From: Phapecoctavirus DIJ07P1
Sequence record: OZ035743.1
Strand: one strand, 5' to 3'
DNA: 64,000 nt
The stretch's first letter is position 1; each line of letters begins with the position of its first letter. Below the pieces are notes generated by a model, which was not told the DNA's origin, did not search any database, and was given only the letters and a program-made list of their open reading frames with translations. Shown here one piece after another: positions 27,501 through 45,540 of this stretch. Position numbers and translations under genes: made by a program.

Positions 27501-27725
27501 TTAAAATGGAAGTCTTTGAAGTTCATCTCCTCCAATATCAAGTAATTTAGCAACATCTCGATCAGAAAGCAACTCTTTTCTTTGTAAAATATCCACAAGG
27601 GTTGCAAGAATCTCCTTAACGTCCCGATCACTGTTCTTCAACAGTTCTCCTGCCGTCCCTACTCTATCTCCTACAGCAAAATATGTAACCATGAAACCTC
27701 CTAAGTTAATCTGATTGCCAACCAC
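27501..27725 (-). CDS. Hypothetical protein
   Basis: 74-aa ORF. Confidence 0.45.
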   Translation of the reverse strand: MVGNQINLGGFMVTYFAVGDRVGTAGELLKNSDRDVKEILATLVDILQRKELLSDRDVAKLLDIGGDELQRLPF

Positions 27726-28176
27726 TTGCCGTTTTGGTCCATAATCTTTGATTATCTGACCCTCTGAAAGGTTTTGTAGTTGGATTGTTTATTTCGTACT
27801 TTCCGTCTACAATAATGTCAATAAGATTTTTAATATACAAAGGCACTTCCTCAAAAGTATATCCTGTATACACCATTATATCTTTGCTTGACCCATAAAC
27901 GTCTCTAACCTTTTCTATAAGGCTTTTAACATTGTGAATATTCTGCGGATCTAATGGTTCTCCTCCTAAAATTGTTAAACCTTTTACAAATGGTCTTGAC
28001 AAATCTTTTAAAACTTGCTCTACATTTTCGTCAGTAAACGGTTTCCCATAAGAATAAGACCAGGCTTTTTGGTTAAAACAGCCACGACAACCGTGGCTAC
28101 AACCACTAACCCAGAGGGAGCACCTAACTCCCTCACCATTAATAAGATCTACAGGTTCATATCCTGCAAAATTCAA
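27706..28176 (-). CDS. nrdG: Anaerobic ribonucleotide reductase activating protein (radical SAM)
   Basis: 156 aa; CSLWVSGCSHGCRGCFN contains CxxxCxxC; directly downstream of nrdD with 4-nt overlap. Confidence 0.85.
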   Translation of the reverse strand: MNFAGYEPVDLINGEGVRCSLWVSGCSHGCRGCFNQKAWSYSYGKPFTDENVEQVLKDLSRPFVKGLTILGGEPLDPQNIHNVKSLIEKVRDVYGSSKDIMVYTGYTFEEVPLYIKNLIDIIVDGKYEINNPTTKPFRGSDNQRLWTKTASGWQSD

Positions 28177-29987
28177 AGATGTTTCTCCCTTTGCAAAACT
28201 TCCTGCATTTTACCTTTGTTATAAGGCCGTGAATTAGGGGCAGAAAGATACCCTGATACACGCCTAACTACAGAAATAGTTTCTTCTTCATGGTTGCCAC
28301 AATCAGGGCACTCAAACCCTTTAGCCGTTGCCTTAAATTCTCCATGAAAACCACACTTAAAGCATTGATCCACGGGCTGATTAATACCAAAATAGTGAAT
28401 ATGTTCATAAGCGTAGTCTACTAAAGTCTCCAAAGCTTCTAAGTTATTCTTTAAGTTTGGTGTTTCGACATAACTTATGTTACCACCATTGCTAATCTGT
28501 GCAAAACCTGCTTCATAATCCCATTTTTCAAAAGGATTTGTTACCAACCATACAGGTTGGTGAAAAGAGTTGGTAAGATAGTCTCTTTCTACCAAACCTG
28601 GGTATTTTTCATTTAAAGCTGTTGCAAACTTATAGCACAAGGATTCTGCTGGAGTTCCATAGAGACTAAACGCCAACTTAGATCGTTCTTTAAACACAGC
28701 ACACACATCTTTCATATGTTGCAGAACGCTTTTACCAAGTTCCTTTTTATCTTTTTCTTCTGGATAAAGGATTTCCAAAGCTTCGGCAAGACCTACATAA
28801 CCAATACTAATAGAAGCATAACCACCTTCAAACAAAACACCAATTTCATCATTGGCATTTAAACGCGCTAAAGCCCCTTCCATGAAAAGAATAGGGTTTT
28901 CAGATGCTTTGGTATGTTTAATACGGTTTACACGTAACATGTGAGCATCGTAGGCTATCTCCATATGTTTATTAAGGAGGTCGGTGAAAGATTCTCCTTT
29001 ACTTCTCGCTTCCGCAGCAATCAGAGGCAAGTTGATAGAAACTACTCCAAGGTTGAATCGTCCATCATATTTTTCTCCTTGTTCGGTGGCATAGTACGAC
29101 AAAAAGGAACGACAACCCATACTCGTAACAGTACCATCTGCTGATCCCGTAACTTCTTTGTTCAAAGGAACAGAAATAAAATCTGGATAAATGCGATCAG
29201 CACAACATGCCAAAGCTTGTTGCTTAAGGTCATAGTTAGGATCACTAGGTTTCATGTTCACACCTTCTTGTAAAAAGAAAATAACTTTAGGAAATACAGG
29301 TGTTACATGATCTTTGCCTAGACCATTACTATGCACTTTAAGATAGTTAGCTGTGATCATTCTGCCAAAAACAGAGGTATCCAGGCCCATACTGATTGTA
29401 ATAAAAGGAGATTGTCCATTTACACTCATTAAAGTATTAACCTGATACAAGAGAGTTTGCATAGCATCATATACATCTTGTTCGGTCATTTCTAGGGCTT
29501 CTTTCCTTGCATAACAACCGTAGCGACGTTTAGTTATCTCCATGTTTTTAAGGAAACTAGCTTCAACATAAGGACTAAGACCTTTATCAATGTGCGCACA
29601 CGTCTGACCTCCATACTGACTGGAGGCAACAGCTTGGATGATTTGAGTTAGCACTGTAGTAGCTACTCCAATAGATTTTGGTTTTTCTATCTGTGCAGCA
29701 CCGATCTTAAAACCATTCTCTAACATATCTTGATAATTAACAAGACAACAGTTTGTAAGAGGAGAGAGCAGATAATCCAAGTCGTGAATATGTCCAAAAC
29801 CTTCTGTATGCCATTCTGACAAGTTTTTTGGCAGTATCTGTGTCATTGCCATATGTTTGCTTAAAATCCCCGCCAAGAGATCCCTATGCGTGTTAACGAG
29901 GTGGGAAGGTTTGTTTGCATTCTCTCTAGTGTATGTTTCTGAAGTGCGATCTAAAAAAGAAAAAACATCTTGGTACAAATCTTTCAT
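28173..29987 (-). CDS. nrdD: Anaerobic ribonucleoside-triphosphate reductase
   Basis: 604 aa; C-terminal CFKCGFHGEF...CPDCGN zinc site followed by glycyl-radical motif RRVSGYL. Confidence 0.9.
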   Translation of the reverse strand: MKDLYQDVFSFLDRTSETYTRENANKPSHLVNTHRDLLAGILSKHMAMTQILPKNLSEWHTEGFGHIHDLDYLLSPLTNCCLVNYQDMLENGFKIGAAQIEKPKSIGVATTVLTQIIQAVASSQYGGQTCAHIDKGLSPYVEASFLKNMEITKRRYGCYARKEALEMTEQDVYDAMQTLLYQVNTLMSVNGQSPFITISMGLDTSVFGRMITANYLKVHSNGLGKDHVTPVFPKVIFFLQEGVNMKPSDPNYDLKQQALACCADRIYPDFISVPLNKEVTGSADGTVTSMGCRSFLSYYATEQGEKYDGRFNLGVVSINLPLIAAEARSKGESFTDLLNKHMEIAYDAHMLRVNRIKHTKASENPILFMEGALARLNANDEIGVLFEGGYASISIGYVGLAEALEILYPEEKDKKELGKSVLQHMKDVCAVFKERSKLAFSLYGTPAESLCYKFATALNEKYPGLVERDYLTNSFHQPVWLVTNPFEKWDYEAGFAQISNGGNISYVETPNLKNNLEALETLVDYAYEHIHYFGINQPVDQCFKCGFHGEFKATAKGFECPDCGNHEEETISVVRRVSGYLSAPNSRPYNKGKMQEVLQREKHL

Positions 29988-37807: not shown

Positions 37808-38061
37808 TTTACTTCCCCTTTGTAATCGGACACTATACCAGGTCTTACTTTTGCCTTAAGATGTTTCAACTCTACCATAGGAGTTGCCACTTGTATAGGG
37901 CTAACTTCAACCTTGTAGATAGTATATTCATAAGTCGCATATTTACCGATGGAATGCAAATACTTAATTGCGTGTTCAGGGGAATCTGCTTCAACATACC
38001 CTAAATCTTTCGTAGTACGACCTTCGGTATCGCCTTCAGTGGTTACGTGATAAAGTGTCAT
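37804..38061 (-). CDS. Hypothetical protein
   Basis: 85-aa ORF. Confidence 0.55.
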   Translation of the reverse strand: MTLYHVTTEGDTEGRTTKDLGYVEADSPEHAIKYLHSIGKYATYEYTIYKVEVSPIQVATPMVELKHLKAKVRPGIVSDYKGEVK

Positions 38062-38381
38062 AAAACCTCCTTCTGGTTGGCTGCTTCAATCATAACGTTA
38101 AGAGTCTCCATACCGCTTTCAACTGCTTGAGCAATCTCTTGGAACACTGTTTTCTTAAAGATGTATAAAGATCCTGCCTGTAAGCGTTGCACACAGCATA
38201 AGAGGGTTTGGTGATCCATAACAAAGTCTCCATAAGCACAATCAATTTTCCCTGTGATTGGGTTGTCTCGTGAGCGAGGATCGTATTCTAATGTGATATG
38301 CGTTACACCAGGTAAAGTAACAAACTGACAACGGATGTTGACACGTGGTGCAATTGACACGCTAAACAAACTGTTTGACAT
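38058..38381 (-). CDS. Hypothetical protein
   Basis: 107-aa ORF. Confidence 0.55.
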   Translation of the reverse strand: MSNSLFSVSIAPRVNIRCQFVTLPGVTHITLEYDPRSRDNPITGKIDCAYGDFVMDHQTLLCCVQRLQAGSLYIFKKTVFQEIAQAVESGMETLNVMIEAANQKEVL

Positions 38382-38528
38382 TTAAACCTCCTCGTAGTAA
38401 GGCAAAGCTTTGATCAGCTGTTCTGAAGTGCCATTCTCTGTCCATGTAACCCCGTTGTCAAGAGAAACATACCCTTTCTTATCGATAAATTTACGGAGAC
38501 AACCAGTGAACTTGTTTTTGTAGATCAT
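38382..38528 (-). CDS. Hypothetical small protein (below ORF-track cutoff)
   Basis: about 48-aa ORF read manually (MIYKNKFTGCLRKF...); ATG overlaps upstream stop. Confidence 0.35.
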   Translation of the reverse strand: MIYKNKFTGCLRKFIDKKGYVSLDNGVTWTENGTSEQLIKALPYYEEV

Positions 38529-38959
38529 TTCTTCTTTCCTTTCTTTAATTTGTTGTGACCTTTACCCTTATAAAGCTTGTGATTACGAGCAGATGGGTTA
38601 TTTTGGTTCTCCAGTCGGCTAACAGGTGTATTCCAAAGATTTCCTGCTACAAAAGATGCTGCCACAAGTTCTTCCAGGTATACAAAATCCAAAGCAGGTA
38701 TCTTTGTTTCCCTCATCTTGCGTTCTACATTAGACAACACGCCTTCTTCCTTACTGTCTTCTTTTTCAATTACAGACCAACCCTCTTCCTGCCAAGCTTC
38801 CCCTCTGAACCAAGTTTCCATGTTATAACCTTGTTCGTCGAGAATAACACCATCTCGCATCTCAAACCATTCACCACCGCAAAAATAACTGTGCTCAACA
38901 CGTCTACCTTCCTTCATTGCTTCTTTAGCTTCGGTCCAAGTCAGTTTGATGTTTTGCAT
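38525..38959 (-). CDS. Hypothetical protein, possibly DUF2829-like N-terminus
   Basis: 144 aa; N-terminal W.EA.EAMKEGRRV...W pattern; basic Lys-rich C-terminus; first gene after minus-strand promoter. Confidence 0.5.
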   Translation of the reverse strand: MQNIKLTWTEAKEAMKEGRRVEHSYFCGGEWFEMRDGVILDEQGYNMETWFRGEAWQEEGWSVIEKEDSKEEGVLSNVERKMRETKIPALDFVYLEELVAASFVAGNLWNTPVSRLENQNNPSARNHKLYKGKGHNKLKKGKKK

Positions 38960-39073
38960 TTGTTTTCTCCTCTTGTTTTGTATGAGTTGATCTTAACAGG
39001 ACTAAAAAGCATGTCAATACTTGATCTGAAATTATTTTCAGGTATCATATATGAACATTAACAAGAGAGGTAG
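38960..39073. promoter_or_regulatory. Divergent promoter region at strand switch
   Basis: Minus: TTGACA-16-TAAGAT; plus: TTGATC / TATCAT-like elements before 39074 ATG. Confidence 0.5.
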
Positions 39074-39367
39074 ATGATGAACATTACTTTAGCAACTAAG
39101 AATATTTCTGAGACAATTAACGGTTTTGGTGTCATTGTAGCCTTACACGGTAACAACGAGAAATGGTTGGCTTCTTTTGAAGAGGATCGTCAGCACAACA
39201 TTATTTTAGATGCTCCTATAAAAGTTATGCATATCGTTGGTGAAAGCAAAGTGCTCACTTCCTCCCGTTCAAAAGAACAAATTACAAATGAATTAGTAAA
39301 ACTGCTTGACAATGTTCTTAACATGTTTGATAATGCACCCATCGATACAAAACGTGTCTTAATGTGA
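39074..39367 (+). CDS. Hypothetical protein
   Basis: 97-aa ORF, RBS GAGAGG. Confidence 0.55.
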   Translation: MMNITLATKNISETINGFGVIVALHGNNEKWLASFEEDRQHNIILDAPIKVMHIVGESKVLTSSRSKEQITNELVKLLDNVLNMFDNAPIDTKRVLM

Positions 39368-39379
39368 GAGGAGAACCAA

Positions 39380-39667
39380 ATGTATTATTCACAAAATGAA
39401 GTAGCAAACATTAAACTGGCAGTTGGCGATCTTATTGTGTCACCTAACTACCATTGGGATAACACAGACTTGGTTGAAGTAGTAACTCATGTTGGGTTTG
39501 AGGGTGTTGTGCTCTACACCCTGGGTGGAGGTGTTGTTGGGGAAATGGAACGTTATACAACGACCAAGAAACTGGTAAGTTCTTATCGTATGTTCTTGCA
39601 TCAAGGCTCAGAAGAGTATGCAACCTTCTTGTTGAAATTGGACGCAGATCGGGAGAAGGCACGATGA
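39380..39667 (+). CDS. Hypothetical protein
   Basis: 95-aa ORF, RBS GAGGAG. Confidence 0.55.
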   Translation: MYYSQNEVANIKLAVGDLIVSPNYHWDNTDLVEVVTHVGFEGVVLYTLGGGVVGEMERYTTTKKLVSSYRMFLHQGSEEYATFLLKLDADREKAR

Positions 39668-40020
39668 AAATTGTACACGATGAAATTCAAATAGAAGAAA
39701 GTGACACGATGGATTTGGATGCAGCTTTGGGGAAGGTAATCTATGCAGGAATTAAAGCCTTCCGTGAGAAGGCAAACAATAGCACGTTTGTCATGATCCC
39801 CACTAAACTGATGCGTGTTTTGTATCCAAATAGAAGTGCGCCGTATACAGATGAAGAAGAGGAGACAGGTAGAAGAGAGTGGTTAAATATTTTAGAAAAG
39901 ATGGAGAATGCTTTTATTGATAGTGGTAATCCAGAAATCGTGTATGCTGAAGATCAAAGGAAGGCACGGTTAGAGGGCCGTCTTTTATTCGCTAGTTATT
40001 TTGATAATCTTTGGAGCTAA
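39664..40020 (+). CDS. Hypothetical protein
   Basis: 118-aa ORF. Confidence 0.55.
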   Translation: MKIVHDEIQIEESDTMDLDAALGKVIYAGIKAFREKANNSTFVMIPTKLMRVLYPNRSAPYTDEEEETGRREWLNILEKMENAFIDSGNPEIVYAEDQRKARLEGRLLFASYFDNLWS

Positions 40021-41162: not shown

Positions 41163-41519
41163 ATGAAAAAACTAATCTTAGCCACATTGCTGGCTACCGT
41201 AAGCTTCACCACTTACGCTCAAAAATTTGTAGCAGTTAAAACAGATATTGGTAAAGATGTTGTGATCACAGGCAACAAGTTTTACTATACACCTGGGAAT
41301 GGTGTTCTAGAAGAGTGTAAAGATGTTGAGGCATATACGGGAAAAGAAGATAACACGGAACGTCCTTTTTATTCGATTATAGCTACTTGCAAAAATGAAA
41401 TAGTAGCTATTAAACAATACAAAGATGCCCCTGGAGGAGAATACTTATTAGTCAAGAATATTAAGAGTGAAAAAACTGCAAAGTTTACAGTAATTATTTT
41501 AAAAGGAGAAACGTTCTAA
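41163..41519 (+). CDS. Secreted protein with signal peptide
   Basis: MKKLILATLLATVSFTTYA signal; GGAGGG RBS. Confidence 0.6.
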   Translation: MKKLILATLLATVSFTTYAQKFVAVKTDIGKDVVITGNKFYYTPGNGVLEECKDVEAYTGKEDNTERPFYSIIATCKNEIVAIKQYKDAPGGEYLLVKNIKSEKTAKFTVIILKGETF

Positions 41520-42658
41520 TGAAATACACTATTTTTGGAGATGTAGCTGTTGTAAATAAGGAATATGGCGTTGAAGCTAATAAACTTCCTGCTGGAGTTT
41601 GGGTTGTCAACTGCGATCCGCACGGTAACTACTCTTTAGTGCGTGGTGAAAGTTTCTCTCTTCCGAACACTCTTTATGGGGAAACTAAAGATCGCGCCGC
41701 ACATGTTATTAAAACATTTGCTCGTCGTAGTAAAGAAGGTAAAAATACTGGGGTGTTACTGACAGGGACAAAAGGCAGTGGTAAGACGATGTTAGCTAAA
41801 CTAATTAGCATGTCTCTAATGTCCACAGAAGGTTTAGGTATTCCAACCATTTTGGTTACACAGCCTTACACAGATGCTGGCTTCTTAGAATTTATGAGTA
41901 AAATTACAGATCGTGCTGTTGTTTTATTTGACGAATTTGATAAAGTGTACGCTAAGAAAGAAGATCAGGAAGCACTGTTGACCTTGTTGGATGGAACAGG
42001 AAGTGGGAATAAACTTTACATCCTCACTAAAAATAGTGGTTATATCTCGGAATATTTTGTAAACCGTCCTAGTCGTATCTACTACAGTTTCAATTACGAT
42101 AAACTGTCTAGTGAAACTATGTTAGATTACTTGGATAAGAACTTGGTAAATAAAAAGCACGTAGATAACTTCCAACGTTTATGGGATGTTAGCACAGAGT
42201 TGTCTTTCGATGTTATTCAAGGCATTGTAGAAGAATTGAATTTCTATCCAAAAATGACTTTTAAAGAATGTCTTGAAATGATGGGTATTTCTTTAGGGAA
42301 CGATGCTAAATGGAATGTGGCTTCTATCGTAGCTAATGGCAAAACCTTGAAGGTGAATTGGATCAATAACTGGCACGACTTCACCCCTACTAAGTTTTTG
42401 TCGGGTGCTTGTTCCCTGAACATCTATCTACAAAGTTTGAAAGATGATGAAGTGGAAGCAATGGAAACCAACAGTTATGTTATCCTGGATGAAGATGGTG
42501 ATCCACATATTGATCTATGTGCAACGGCTGATGGTCTAACTTGTGATCTGATTGAAGGTGGTAAGATTCTGGTTATGAGCACTACACCAGGAAACACTTT
42601 GCGAGTGGTGCTGGAGCCTGTAACACAACGTTCCACTACACTTGGTAGCGTGTTCTAA
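41519..42658 (+). CDS. AAA+ ATPase
   Basis: 379 aa; Walker A GTKGSGKT, Walker B VVLFDEFD. Confidence 0.75.
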   Translation: MKYTIFGDVAVVNKEYGVEANKLPAGVWVVNCDPHGNYSLVRGESFSLPNTLYGETKDRAAHVIKTFARRSKEGKNTGVLLTGTKGSGKTMLAKLISMSLMSTEGLGIPTILVTQPYTDAGFLEFMSKITDRAVVLFDEFDKVYAKKEDQEALLTLLDGTGSGNKLYILTKNSGYISEYFVNRPSRIYYSFNYDKLSSETMLDYLDKNLVNKKHVDNFQRLWDVSTELSFDVIQGIVEELNFYPKMTFKECLEMMGISLGNDAKWNVASIVANGKTLKVNWINNWHDFTPTKFLSGACSLNIYLQSLKDDEVEAMETNSYVILDEDGDPHIDLCATADGLTCDLIEGGKILVMSTTPGNTLRVVLEPVTQRSTTLGSVF

Positions 42659-42663
42659 TAAAG

Positions 42664-42681
42664 ATGCCCCGCAAGGGGCAT
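42664..42681 (+). terminator. Hairpin terminator
   Basis: atgccccgcaaggggcat stem-loop followed by TTGTT. Confidence 0.55.
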
Positions 42682-42746
42682 TTGTTATGGAGGGATTTTA
42701 GTTATTCTTTTGTTGTAGGCTCGCACTAATAGCTAAAGGGGGAGGT

Positions 42747-44207
42747 GTGCCAAAAATAGTCACTTGGGAACAATATAAAACAGATATAAAACAAGCTTAT
42801 CAAGGTAAGTCTTGGACTGTTGTAGATTATATTGAGCCGTGGAACGGCAATAAAACTAAACTTAGATGCATCTGTGCTCTGCATGGAGAATGGAAAACAA
42901 CAAGCATAAATACCGCTAAACTAGGGAGGGGTTGTCCAGAATGCGGTAGGGAGATTATAAGTAAAGCAGTATCTATAAACAAATCAAAAACCTGGGAGCA
43001 ATATAAAGAAGAAGTGCAAACCACTTACAATCAGGCAGGTAAGTTTTGGACTGTTACAGGATGGCACGGAGAATGGAAAGGATGGAATACTAAACTGGTT
43101 TGTTGTTGTGCTTTACATGGGGAGTGGAGGTCTACTTCTATATCTTCTGCGAAAAACGGGAGTGGATGCAGGAAGTGTATGGGAGAAGCAAACAGAGAAA
43201 GAACATCGATTGCATGGGAGAAACATAAAGAAGAAGTAGAAGAAGCTTATAAAGAAAAACCCTGGATTGTTAGAGGCTATGTGGAACCGTGGAACGGTTC
43301 CCGCACTAAGTTGATTTGTGAGTGTAAGGTTCATGGTCAATGGTGCACTACCACTGTAAACAGTGCTAAACAAGGGACTGGATGCTACAGTTGTCAAAGA
43401 GAAATGACGAAACAAAGGAATACAATGGAGGATAAACAACATGTTGAAGATTTTATAAAAGCTTGTCCTGATAATGTAGAGCGTAAATATTATCGTAGCG
43501 ATAGAGTAGATAGATTAGGTCGTCAGGTTTACTGGATTGTAGAATGTCCTATATGTGCAGAGGATGATTATTGTAAAGAAGGCTTATGCGATAATAAATT
43601 TGAGATGAAGATGAGTCATTTGAAAAGGGGTGGCCTTCCTTGCCGTTGTTCTAAATATTATCATTACACTCCTGAACAATGGGCCTACCGTATGACCAAA
43701 GCTTGCCAGGAACGAGGGGATCAATTTATAGGATTCATTGATAAGGTAAGCAATAACAGCAAGTTTAAATATCTATGTAGGGAGCATGGAGAGCAAACGA
43801 TCACACCTACCGATTATCTCAATGGGAAAGGTTGTCCAGGCTGTAAGAACAGAAATATGCAAGAATTTTACATCAATATTATTCTTGATGAGTACGGAGA
43901 AGACACGGGAGCTTACAAGTTGGGGATTGCAAAGGACAGTGATATCAGGATCAAAGGGCAGAATGCAAACAACAATTACTCTATGCGCCGTATAGCATTG
44001 TTCGATCTGCCGTCCTACCAAGCTTGCAGGGCGTTAGAGAGTAAGCTAAAGTCTAAGACTGATCAGATTCTACCGTCTATTGGCTGTGTAGAACGCTTGC
44101 ACATGAAAGATGGTCATAGTGAAACCTTCCTGCGCGAGGATTTGGCTATCGTCTTAAGTGCTATCAACCAAGCAGGTGGAATAATGAGAGAGGAGGAAAC
44201 ATGTTAG
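42747..44207 (+). CDS. Zinc-ribbon tandem-repeat protein with C-terminal GIY-YIG-like region
   Basis: 486 aa; four tandem ~75-aa repeats (W..YK...W.V..Y.EPWNG..TKL.C.C..HGEW.TTS.N.AK.G.GC..C); C-terminal EFYINIIL...GAYKLGIA. Confidence 0.7.
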   Translation: MPKIVTWEQYKTDIKQAYQGKSWTVVDYIEPWNGNKTKLRCICALHGEWKTTSINTAKLGRGCPECGREIISKAVSINKSKTWEQYKEEVQTTYNQAGKFWTVTGWHGEWKGWNTKLVCCCALHGEWRSTSISSAKNGSGCRKCMGEANRERTSIAWEKHKEEVEEAYKEKPWIVRGYVEPWNGSRTKLICECKVHGQWCTTTVNSAKQGTGCYSCQREMTKQRNTMEDKQHVEDFIKACPDNVERKYYRSDRVDRLGRQVYWIVECPICAEDDYCKEGLCDNKFEMKMSHLKRGGLPCRCSKYYHYTPEQWAYRMTKACQERGDQFIGFIDKVSNNSKFKYLCREHGEQTITPTDYLNGKGCPGCKNRNMQEFYINIILDEYGEDTGAYKLGIAKDSDIRIKGQNANNNYSMRRIALFDLPSYQACRALESKLKSKTDQILPSIGCVERLHMKDGHSETFLREDLAIVLSAINQAGGIMREEETC

Positions 44208-44566
44208 TTGACGTTCAAATTATGCGCAACGAAAGAATGGACTTCTTTGAAGCAGTAGAGAAACATCTGATCAGATGGGACTATGAATTTGTTCCTGCTG
44301 GATGTGGACCAGTAGAGCATTTAGCGGAAGACGACGATGTATACATGATCATTCGTCAAGTGTACCAGACAGACCAGTGTGAAGAAACTCCCGAACTGAT
44401 TTTGTTTGAGTGTAAAGATCTTGCAAAATATTTTGACTATGGCGGAAAAGAGGGTCATAATCTCTCCAGATACAATAAACGTCTACTTATCTTAGACTAC
44501 ATGCGGAACAACAAACACAAACTCATCGACGCAGACGCAGTTTATGGCTACTGGTGGATGGACTAA
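44201..44566 (+). CDS. Hypothetical protein
   Basis: 121-aa ORF. Confidence 0.55.
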   Translation: MLVDVQIMRNERMDFFEAVEKHLIRWDYEFVPAGCGPVEHLAEDDDVYMIIRQVYQTDQCEETPELILFECKDLAKYFDYGGKEGHNLSRYNKRLLILDYMRNNKHKLIDADAVYGYWWMD

Positions 44567-44579
44567 CAAAGGAGAAACT

Positions 44580-44759
44580 ATGGCACGTTTAGCAGATCAT
44601 GAAATCTTTAAACCTATTCTGAACCACTATGATGAACTTAAAGCAGTGTTGGATTGTTATAGAGAGGATGAAGAACGTTTGGAAGTCAATCTTAAGATAG
44701 TTCTGATGAAAGCTTTTCAAGACGGGCAAGCTAAAGTTTTAGAAGGCATGAAAAAATGA
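44580..44759 (+). CDS. Hypothetical small protein
   Basis: Start set at Met after GGAGAAA RBS. Confidence 0.45.
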   Translation: MARLADHEIFKPILNHYDELKAVLDCYREDEERLEVNLKIVLMKAFQDGQAKVLEGMKK

Positions 44760-45298
44760 GAATAACTGATGAATATGTATTCTTCTTTTCACATAAAGAT
44801 GTGTTTAGTAATTGGTATATTGCACCCTTTACAGAAACTGAACCAGGTTACAATGAGACTTTCTGTTGTGTTGAGCAATATATGATGTGGCGTAAGGCTT
44901 TGCTGTTCAAGGATCATGCGATTGCAGCAGCTATCCTTGATCACTCAACTATACGTGACAACGAGAGGAAACAAGCATACTACAAACGTATGGGTCGAGC
45001 GGTATCTGGTTTTAATAATGATATGTGGGAAGAGAACCGTGAGCGTATTGTTATGCGAGGCTTATGCTTGAAATATGTACAGAATCCAGATTTGTATGCA
45101 GACTTACACCTTTACCAATACAAAACGTTTGTTGAAGCAAGTCCTTACGATAAGGTTTACGGTATTGGAATGGGAATGTATGAACCAGGGGTGCTAAACC
45201 CTGCTACCTGGAAAGGGCAGAATCTTTTAGGCAAATATCATAATAAACTGATCGAAATACTTTTCCCAGACAAAATACCGCAAAGACGATATTTGTGA
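44756..45298 (+). CDS. NADAR-domain (YbiA-like, DUF1768) protein
   Basis: 180 aa; VFFFSHKDVFSNWY...CCVEQYMMWRKALLF parallels E. coli YbiA INFYS...FSNF...SEHYFQAQKF. Confidence 0.65.
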   Translation: MRITDEYVFFFSHKDVFSNWYIAPFTETEPGYNETFCCVEQYMMWRKALLFKDHAIAAAILDHSTIRDNERKQAYYKRMGRAVSGFNNDMWEENRERIVMRGLCLKYVQNPDLYADLHLYQYKTFVEASPYDKVYGIGMGMYEPGVLNPATWKGQNLLGKYHNKLIEILFPDKIPQRRYL

Positions 45299-45353: not shown

Positions 45354-45380
45354 AGGCTCCTACAGCACCGTAGAGAGCCT
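45354..45380 (+). terminator. Rho-independent terminator
   Basis: aggctc-ctacagcaccgtagag-agcct hairpin followed by gttattttgt. Confidence 0.65.
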
Positions 45381-45540
45381 GTTATTTTGTCCTATACAAA
45401 CCCTTGTCTTTTTCAGTTTGCATCACTAGGATTCGATCTGAGTGGGTTCCTGAAGGTTTACCAATAAGATTAAAGGTTATATCAAATTCCCACTATCTTT
45501 TATCTCAAAAATCCCTCAAATTATTTAAACTTTTTAAGAA

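Follow-up and report, generated by a model that had tools for sequence, protein, structure and literature searches.

Zinc fingers are a regular companion of T5orf172 nucleases: 87% of 229 homing endonuclease genes (HEGs) of this type encode CapR, DUF723 or DUF4379 fingers, often several of them (Barth, Dunham and Seed 2023, PMC10448857). The fingers have been described as beads on a string, the number of which is altered by recombination between the repeats, and the nuclease genes are located at boundaries of genetic exchange (PMC10448857). In the CapR protein of PLE the Cys4 signature CxxC-(24-26)-CxC is needed for DNA binding, which was abolished upon mutation of Cys to Ser (PMC8096241). With regard to the nuclease domain, Odn of phage ICP1 is an active T5orf172 enzyme that lacks the His/Tyr residue of helix 1, and its E180A variant is inactive (PMC8263062). 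Here we analyze a stretch of 64,000 nucleotides from Phapecoctavirus DIJ07P1 (sequence record OZ035743.1), termed the window in the following, in which an open reading frame (ORF) at 42747-44207 (+) encodes a related protein, consisting of a CapR-type array and a C-terminal T5orf172-like domain. This architecture is already published (PMC10448857).

On balance, we read the gene as encoding a free-standing, site-specific DNA endonuclease of the T5orf172 type (GIY-YIG superfamily) and of the homing-endonuclease kind. The domain assignment as such is made with high confidence and the protein is probably an active nuclease, while the chances that the gene is currently homing as a selfish element appear evenly balanced. 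The reading frame proposed in the earlier note on this DNA agrees with that of gp171 in the RefSeq record of ESCO13, where it is labelled 'endonuclease'. PHROG 681 ('endonuclease') covers amino acids (aa) 5-483 of the protein (E 8.8e-84), and the UniProt/BFVD entry for the product, A0A1D7XFK1, is named 'CapR homology domain-containing protein'. A 4.5-kb stretch around the gene is identical over its full length to 99.9% with vB_EcoM-Ro121lw, the SA_NWU isolates and ESCO25/37 and to 99.6% with ESCO13, all of which belong to the genus Phapecoctavirus (phAPEC8-like myoviruses, Stephanstirmvirinae).

Domain composition of the protein

The Pfam CapR homology domain (PF21817) matches five stretches of the protein, termed R1 to R5 (Table 1), with 99.3 bits for the whole protein against a gathering cut-off of 24.2. 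When the units were scanned singly, R1, R4 and R5 exceeded this cut-off and R2 and R3 reached 22-23 bits. The published Cys4 signature is present in R4 only, there with a spacing of 28 residues, whereas R1, R2, R3 and R5 use C-x2-H...C-x2-C. R4 is also the best CapR match of all units (E 1.3e-10). Conservation of the putative zinc ligands was read from an alignment of 25 full-length homologues, in which the C-x2-H...C-x2-C set is conserved in the A-type units including R5; within R3, residues C193, C213 and C216 are invariant.

The repetitive nature of the array is evident from a tblastn self-match displaced by one unit (41.7% identity over 180 aa, E 3.6e-36) and from a unit spacing of 73-77 aa. 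Pairwise identities between R1, R2 and R3 amount to 48-56% (z = 23-38 versus shuffled sequences). R5 is a more remote member of the A subtype, 31-38% identical to R1-R3 (z 4-8), while R4 represents a different subtype and cannot be linked to the other units by pairwise comparison (z about 0). R4 stands between R3 and R5 and thus interrupts the series of four similar units. The earlier note had described four tandem zinc-ribbon repeats of about 75 aa, all carrying the same pattern with a stressed C.C motif. The repeats are real and their period is right, but the array has five units belonging to two subtypes, and the quoted pattern is complete in R1-R3 only, R5 being divergent and R4 of the other subtype. 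The label 'zinc ribbon' needs correcting, as does the emphasis on C.C, in view of the conserved ligands and of the modelled fold. The modelled unit comprises a helix, three strands and a short helix (alpha-beta-beta-beta-alpha). The beta2-beta3 hairpin bears the C-x2-H and the helix after it carries the C-x2-C at its N-terminus, a treble-clef arrangement. As modelled, the units look like treble-clef fingers and not like classical zinc ribbons, and weak co-matches to DUF4379 ('probable treble clef') and DUF723 agree with this.

Structure prediction of the array, which the earlier note had proposed as a check, gave units that appear treble-clef-like and independently folded. The full-length model has a mean predicted local distance difference test score (pLDDT) of 84.3 and a predicted template modelling score (pTM) of only 0.46, and the linker between R1 and R2 is of low confidence, just as expected for independently folded beads on a string. 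A Foldseek comparison of this model with the PDB returned nothing at E<=0.001, that is, no solved structure significantly resembles the array, nor did we come across a solved CapR domain. The best of the non-significant Foldseek matches were proteins with tandem double-stranded RNA-binding domains (TARBP2, Loqs, DGCR8); we dismissed them, as the likeness is weak and probably reflects only the shared alpha-beta-beta-beta-alpha topology. A weak Pfam DSRM_2 match (E 0.068) also lies on the zinc units.

The nucleotide sequences of R1-R3 are only 58-59% identical to each other and Tandem Repeats Finder detects no DNA-level repeat in the gene; the duplications are therefore old and not recent. R2 is orthologous to the single A-unit of the nearest one-unit alleles (66-69% identity), and the closest relatives of R1 and R3 in the sequence sets collected here are only 50-57% identical. 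The extra modules therefore did not arise by recent copying of R2; they are either old or were acquired from unsampled alleles. HMM (hidden Markov model) scans of all six-frame ORFs revealed no second family member in the window. A paralogue candidate at 28296-28427 proved to be the C-terminal zinc ribbon of an anaerobic ribonucleotide reductase. It is the sole weak false match of the zinc-finger units and belongs to the NrdD-like protein (604 aa) that is encoded together with an NrdG-like activase (156 aa) at 27706-29987 (-).

Part of the array (aa 8-248, 42747-43490) also matches PHROG 559 ('HNH endonuclease', E 6.2e-25, profile positions 126-329 of 607). Among representatives of the C-terminal domain family one carries HNH_3 and another NUMOD4, which suggests that the same DNA-binding modules are paired with different nuclease classes. 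Distant homologues of the array reside on Cupriavidus and cyanobacterial plasmids and are annotated as GIY-YIG nucleases.

The C-terminal domain of the window protein is a divergent member of its group. Pfam T5orf172 (PF10544, clan GIY-YIG) matches it below the gathering cut-off (13.5-13.7 bits versus 20, E about 0.1, profile positions 3-86 of 101), and PF01541 (GIY-YIG) does not match at E<=10. Of 20 close homologues, on the other hand, 17 match T5orf172 and six match MUG113 from the same clan. The wider family was sampled by 142 representatives clustered at 50% identity, 30 of which match T5orf172 (best 6.4e-5) and 21 MUG113 (best 5e-6) at E<0.01. The syntenic allele of phage inny from the sister genus Justusliebigvirus exceeds the T5orf172 cut-off with 20.7 bits, and its C-terminal domain aligns with the profile of the window family at an hhalign probability of 99.9% (E 1.5e-36). 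The HMM search suggested in the earlier note thus failed for GIY-YIG and stayed sub-threshold for T5orf172 in the window protein itself, but succeeded for T5orf172 via the homologues and inny. Searches of PDB sequences with the protein and two C-terminal profiles gave chance matches only (FtsY, anillin, GST), and the endonuclease has no matches in NCBIfam and PADLOC.

An AlphaFold2 model of the domain, based on a 35-sequence alignment, reached a mean pLDDT of 90.7 and a pTM of 0.84. Its elements follow the order beta1-beta2-alpha1-beta3-alpha2 around a three-stranded sheet, as in the GIY-YIG superfamily fold, and Foldseek against viral models returned proteins named homing endonuclease, GIY-YIG, T5 Orf172 DNA-binding, MUG113 and Hef-like homing endonuclease. 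The pattern FYINIIL...YKLGIA that had drawn attention to the domain in the first place is present, with Y375, K391 and G393 as its invariant positions. Y375, the 'GIY' tyrosine on beta1, is invariant in the 35 sequences and nearly so in the 142. R401 and E431, the putative catalytic Arg/Glu pair on which the earlier note had made the nuclease reading depend, are invariant in all alignments (20, 35 and 142 sequences), and K391-x-G393 on strand 2 and D455-G456-x2-E459-T460 are invariant or nearly so in the same sets. Judged by position in the secondary structure rather than by superposition, Y375, R401 and E431 would correspond to Y6, R27 and E75 of I-TevI. Two canonical features are absent. The spacing from the invariant glycine puts the invariant K391 in the place of the 'YIG' tyrosine (K-L/F-G-I), the adjacent Y390 not being conserved, and the His/Tyr residue that is usual in helix 1 of GIY-YIG enzymes is also missing. 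Taken together, the family scans, the link via inny, the model and the conservation support the proposal of the earlier note that a putative nucleic-acid-binding array is joined to a GIY-YIG/T5orf172-like nuclease module.

The missing second tyrosine and helix-1 His/Tyr could also be explained by a regulator with an inactive nuclease fold, whose array binds promoter DNA and whose C-terminal domain aids binding or dimerization. I-TevI acts as an autorepressor, T5orf172 is elsewhere annotated as a 'DNA-binding domain', and CapR itself is a repressor built from the same domain (PMC8096241). CapR, however, has lost the nuclease domain that the window protein retains, the (near-)invariance of Tyr, Arg and Glu over the 142 representatives is hard to explain without catalysis, and Odn is an active nuclease although it equally lacks the helix-1 His/Tyr (PMC8263062). 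We therefore regard a purely regulatory function as very improbable.

The family of the C-terminal domain comprises 775 clusters (50% identity) at E<=0.001 among 1.84 billion representative proteins. The domain is invariably located at the C-terminus, in proteins of 100-527 aa, and the zinc-finger families CapR, DUF723 and DUF4379 are found in 124, 43 and 30 of the 142 representatives, respectively. Judged by rough, self-built HMMs, the architectures extend from a solitary nuclease domain (N) up to five or six zinc units, such that the arrangement A-A-A-B-A-N of the window protein lies near the upper end without being unique. Close homologues share a core (A)n-B-A-N with n = 1 (about 332 aa), n = 2 (about 405 aa) or, in the window protein, n = 3. 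One protein of 669 aa from a metagenome contig (P0002) contains two complete family endonucleases head to tail (A-B-A-N, A-B-A-N), either a read-through of two tandem genes or a real fusion.

Allele diversity and exchange at the locus

Compared with phages ukendt and tuntematon, the window is 97-100% identical at the nucleotide level until about position 42,660; the identity drops sharply within the cassette (Table 1) and returns to 86-100% from about 44,170, so that the last ~35 bp of the endonuclease ORF lie in the region of recovered identity. This 3' end is conserved in all endonuclease alleles because it contains the ribosome-binding site (RBS) of the next gene as well as its ATG, which overlaps the endonuclease stop. 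The 4.5-kb neighborhood matches 122 phage records and the gene alone just 26 (megablast). In 23 of these 26 the ORF is intact and 98-100% identical. For the nuclease domain of the window allele, 23 records are at least 99% identical, three lie at 80-90% and 126 below 60%. The corresponding alleles of ukendt (402 aa) and tuntematon (332 aa) consist of a CapR array and a MUG113-like domain, that of inny (390 aa) of four CapR units and T5orf172. The Mt1B1_P17 allele (335 aa) has a CapR array and a C-terminal domain 40% identical to that of the window protein, without a T5orf172 or MUG113 Pfam match at E<=0.01. Endonuclease alleles are only 35-42% identical while the neighboring proteins are identical to 99-100%, and alleles from the same genus diverge as much as the allele of the sister genus, where even the neighboring ATPase is 66% identical.

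Exchange tracts are bounded by or centered on the gene, as expected for homing endonucleases. The alleles of ukendt and tuntematon differ in their 5' (zinc-finger) parts and are about 98-100% identical from the equivalent of window position ~43,944 onwards, which marks an intragenic recombination breakpoint inside the nuclease domain. Klebsiella phage ZCKP1 shares a 2.76-kb block of 100% identity (41,804-44,562) that is centered on the gene, in a background of 80-99% identity. The sharp drops in identity, the divergence of the alleles and the shared tracts therefore point to a gene that has been replaced and recombined repeatedly, as in the published T5orf172 HEGs, but without the presence/absence polymorphism of textbook homing. 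This last point weighs against our interpretation. An artificial empty-site query, in which the 3' end of the ATPase gene was joined directly to the downstream gene, did not reveal an intact empty site among 70 records. The flanks are always separated by an allele of the same family, 1.0-1.5 kb in length, and in the other phages, where they are 92-99% identical, by 1.0-1.2 kb annotated 'endonuclease'. Sporadic presence at a conserved locus is thus not observed.

One record lacks the gene. In phage vB_EcoM_EP57 (OR544956, 130.7 kb) the segment 42,649-44,188, nearly the exact cassette, is deleted, which clips the ATPase gene and fuses its ORF to downstream sequence. If the assembly is correct, the gene is therefore dispensable. 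Further small deletions in EP57 affect the window equivalents of 44692-45063 and 45378-45500, and the record may stem either from a genuinely reduced genome or from faulty assembly.

Classically, the homing cycle ends with every site occupied. With no sites left to invade and with the deletion in EP57, the gene might be a decaying remnant of a once mobile endonuclease gene, retained only since its 3' end supplies the RBS of the next gene. Such a role, however, would need just ~35 bp and not 1.46 kb, every zinc ligand and catalytic residue is preserved, and the ORF is intact in nearly all matching records, such that decay is the least credible of the explanations considered here.

A domesticated conflict nuclease, directed against co-infecting phages, satellites or host elements, deserves closer attention. 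Here, allele turnover and variation in finger number would reflect an arms race over target specificity, and the enzyme would resemble Odn of ICP1 and the Odn-like T5orf172 nucleases described in the related coliphages Inny, Muut and Mt1B1_P17. Such a function fits with a locus that is occupied in all related phages except for the multiply deleted EP57, with the start/stop overlap that ties the gene into an operon with the next one, and with extreme allele divergence beside neighbors of 99-100% identity. Precedents for neofunctionalization of T5orf172 proteins exist in the same phage subfamily (PMC10448857) and in ICP1 (PMC8263062). On the other hand, the published Odn-like proteins are different genes, namely RepA_N fusions located elsewhere in the genome and not CapR arrays, the protein has no PADLOC match and EP57 apparently lives without the gene. 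Furthermore, none of the 5,426 complete E. coli genomes searched by blastn contained DNA related to the gene, and hence there is no sign of a specificity module derived from a satellite. We regard this possibility as doubtful, albeit worth keeping in mind. The idea that the RepA_N nucleases of inny and Mt1B1_P17 occupy the locus studied here was discarded, as the alleles of both phages at this site are CapR arrays.

A free-standing endonuclease of the homing kind, which we continue to favor, may be envisaged as follows. Five independently folded, presumably zinc-binding CapR-type fingers on helical or flexible linkers would read a long asymmetric DNA site and tether the C-terminal domain, which would cut nearby using the conserved Tyr375/Arg401/Glu431 set, with Glu431 as the predicted metal ligand. 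During mixed infection, the enzyme would cut related phage genomes bearing a different allele at or near the locus, and the break would be repaired by recombination, through which the cut genome would acquire the cassette along with flanking DNA. Gain or swap of zinc-finger modules (one, two or three A-type units depending on the allele) may change the target specificity. A further and rather unlikely scenario is that the slot between the ATPase and NADAR genes in Stephanstirmvirinae is a permanently occupied specificity cassette, in which very old, divergent T5orf172 alleles tuned by their modules replace one another and serve for allele-against-allele exclusion or as another conflict weapon rather than as a simple selfish homing gene. 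If so, the five-unit array of the window protein would be the longest reader at the locus among the alleles examined.

Surrounding signals and neighboring genes

Directly past the stop codon of the upstream gene lies a G+C-rich palindromic hairpin, ATGCCCCGCAAGGGGCAT, followed by TTTGTTAT, which is terminator-like and would set the endonuclease gene apart from the ATPase gene. In the records of Schickermooser and ASO2A 'terminator' features are annotated somewhere inside the matched 4.5-kb region. A scan for sigma-70 promoters upstream of the endonuclease gene yielded nothing convincing. The RBS of the downstream 121-aa ORF sits within the last codons of the endonuclease gene. Features of the locus are compiled in Table 1.

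Table 1. Features of the endonuclease gene and its immediate surroundings (positions refer to the window)
Feature	Position	Strand	Details
Variable cassette	42660..44170		Identity to ukendt/tuntematon drops to about 40-60%
Terminator-like hairpin	42664..42681		Directly past ATPase stop codon
Shine-Dalgarno-like AAGGGGG	42736..42742	+	4 nt before GTG; RBS of ESCO13 annotated at equivalent position
Endonuclease ORF	42747..44207	+	486 aa; GTG start; TAG stop 44205-44207; CapR x5 + T5orf172-like endonuclease
Unit R1, A-type, aa 4-70	42756..42956	+	Putative ligands C43, H46, C63, C66; CapR alone E 7.1e-6
Unit R2, A-type, aa 81-148	42987..43190	+	Putative ligands C121, H124, C141, C144
Unit R3, A-type, aa 154-220	43206..43406	+	Putative ligands C193, H196, C213, C216
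Unit R4, B-type, aa 227-304	43425..43658	+	C267-x2-C270...C299-x-C301, four Cys invariant
Unit R5, divergent A-type, aa 305-370	43659..43856	+	C344, H347, C363, C366, all invariant; CapR E 1.6e-9
GIY-YIG-fold, T5orf172-like nuclease domain, aa 371-486	43857..44204	+	
Conserved residue Y375	43869-43871	+	Strand 1 (beta1), within F-Y-I-N
Conserved residue R401	43947-43949	+	Start of helix 1 (helix aa 398-408)
Conserved residue E431	44037-44039	+	Helix after strand 3 (helix aa 424-435)
Downstream ORF, 121 aa	44201..44566	+	ATG overlaps endonuclease stop (ATGTTAG); 99-100% aa identity across phages

The gene directly upstream, 41519-42658 (+), encodes an AAA-type ATPase with weak matches to nSTAND and PADLOC mad8. 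The protein is 100% identical between phages whose adjoining endonuclease alleles share just 35-42%. Its gene is a possible location of the target site of the nuclease, or it may simply be an unrelated conserved neighbor.

Downstream, a 180-aa ORF at 44756-45298 (+) encodes a NADAR domain protein (Pfam E 3.4e-35) that is mislabelled 'GTP cyclohydrolase II' or COG3236 in several GenBank records. Compared with ZCKP1, WPEC4 and tuntematon it contains a patch of dense substitutions at 44,839-45,025 (about 80% identity). This patch was considered as a target or immunity polymorphism and dropped, since ZCKP1 and WPEC4 share the endonuclease allele of the window but differ in the patch. In WPEC4 a second dense-substitution block, 44598-44760 (about 71% identity), lies over a small ORF (44544-44759) in surroundings of 97-100% identity. 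On a larger scale, the GC skew of the window changes its sign at ~38000-40000, with negative values over 4-38 kb giving way to positive ones from about 40 kb onwards. The switch coincides with the point at which, in the ESCO13 annotation, leftward- and rightward-transcribed blocks of small ORFs diverge.

Significance and comparison with known systems

Conceptually, little of this is new: T5orf172 endonucleases with repeated CapR units are published and the gene already bears the label 'endonuclease'. What is added is an always-occupied, hypervariable cassette locus in culturable coliphages with an allelic series of one to three extra zinc-finger modules. If active, the protein would be a natural modular zinc-finger-array nuclease, and alleles with one, two or three modules in near-isogenic phages could reveal how the length and specificity of the target depend on the number of modules. 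The occupied hypervariable slot also offers a tractable system for distinguishing selfish homing from a weapon in phage-phage or phage-satellite conflict. As phages of this kind are used in therapy research, nuclease-driven recombination between members of a cocktail may be of practical relevance.

Free-standing genes of the I-TevI and T4 Seg type lie between conserved phage genes and are involved in intronless homing or marker exclusion. These enzymes resemble the window protein in that a catalytic domain of GIY-YIG fold is tethered to separate modules for DNA binding, a zinc finger among them. The likeness to the structure-specific GIY-YIG (URI) nucleases of the SLX1/HIGLE group is confined to the fold, with sequence identities to the window domain of only 10-13%. 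SLX1 itself resolves junctions in eukaryotes, has a RING/PHD domain as its partner and lacks a sequence-specific array.

The PLE CapR protein, the capsid repressor of a V. cholerae phage satellite and namesake of PF21817, shares the zinc-finger domain, and its Cys4 signature is that of R4. Unlike the window protein it is a single domain of 15.5 kDa without a nuclease and acts as a transcriptional repressor. The origin-directed nuclease Odn of ICP1 (Gp88; Barth et al. 2021, PMC8263062) is similar in keeping Arg and Glu without the helix-1 His/Tyr and in delegating specificity to a separate N-terminal DNA-binding module, and it provides the experimental proof that a T5orf172-type domain cuts DNA (PMC8263062). 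The module of Odn is a RepA_N domain derived from its satellite target, whereas the CapR array of the window protein has no detectable counterpart in E. coli genomes.

The closest match is provided by HEGs such as gp174, gp165 and gp121 of vibriophage ICP1, which likewise combine an N-terminal CapR-type array with a C-terminal T5orf172-like domain (PMC10448857; Netter et al. 2021, PMC8096241). Further features in common with the T5orf172 HEGs of ICP1 are a unit number that varies from allele to allele, recombination within and next to the gene, and a position at exchange boundaries. Differences nevertheless exist. The gene studied here resides in Stephanstirmvirinae infecting E. coli and represents a divergent nuclease branch that is only weakly detected by Pfam T5orf172, and four of its five units carry C-x2-H...C-x2-C in place of the published C-x2-C...C-x-C. 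Finally, while the ICP1 HEGs occur sporadically, the locus in the window always holds some allele.

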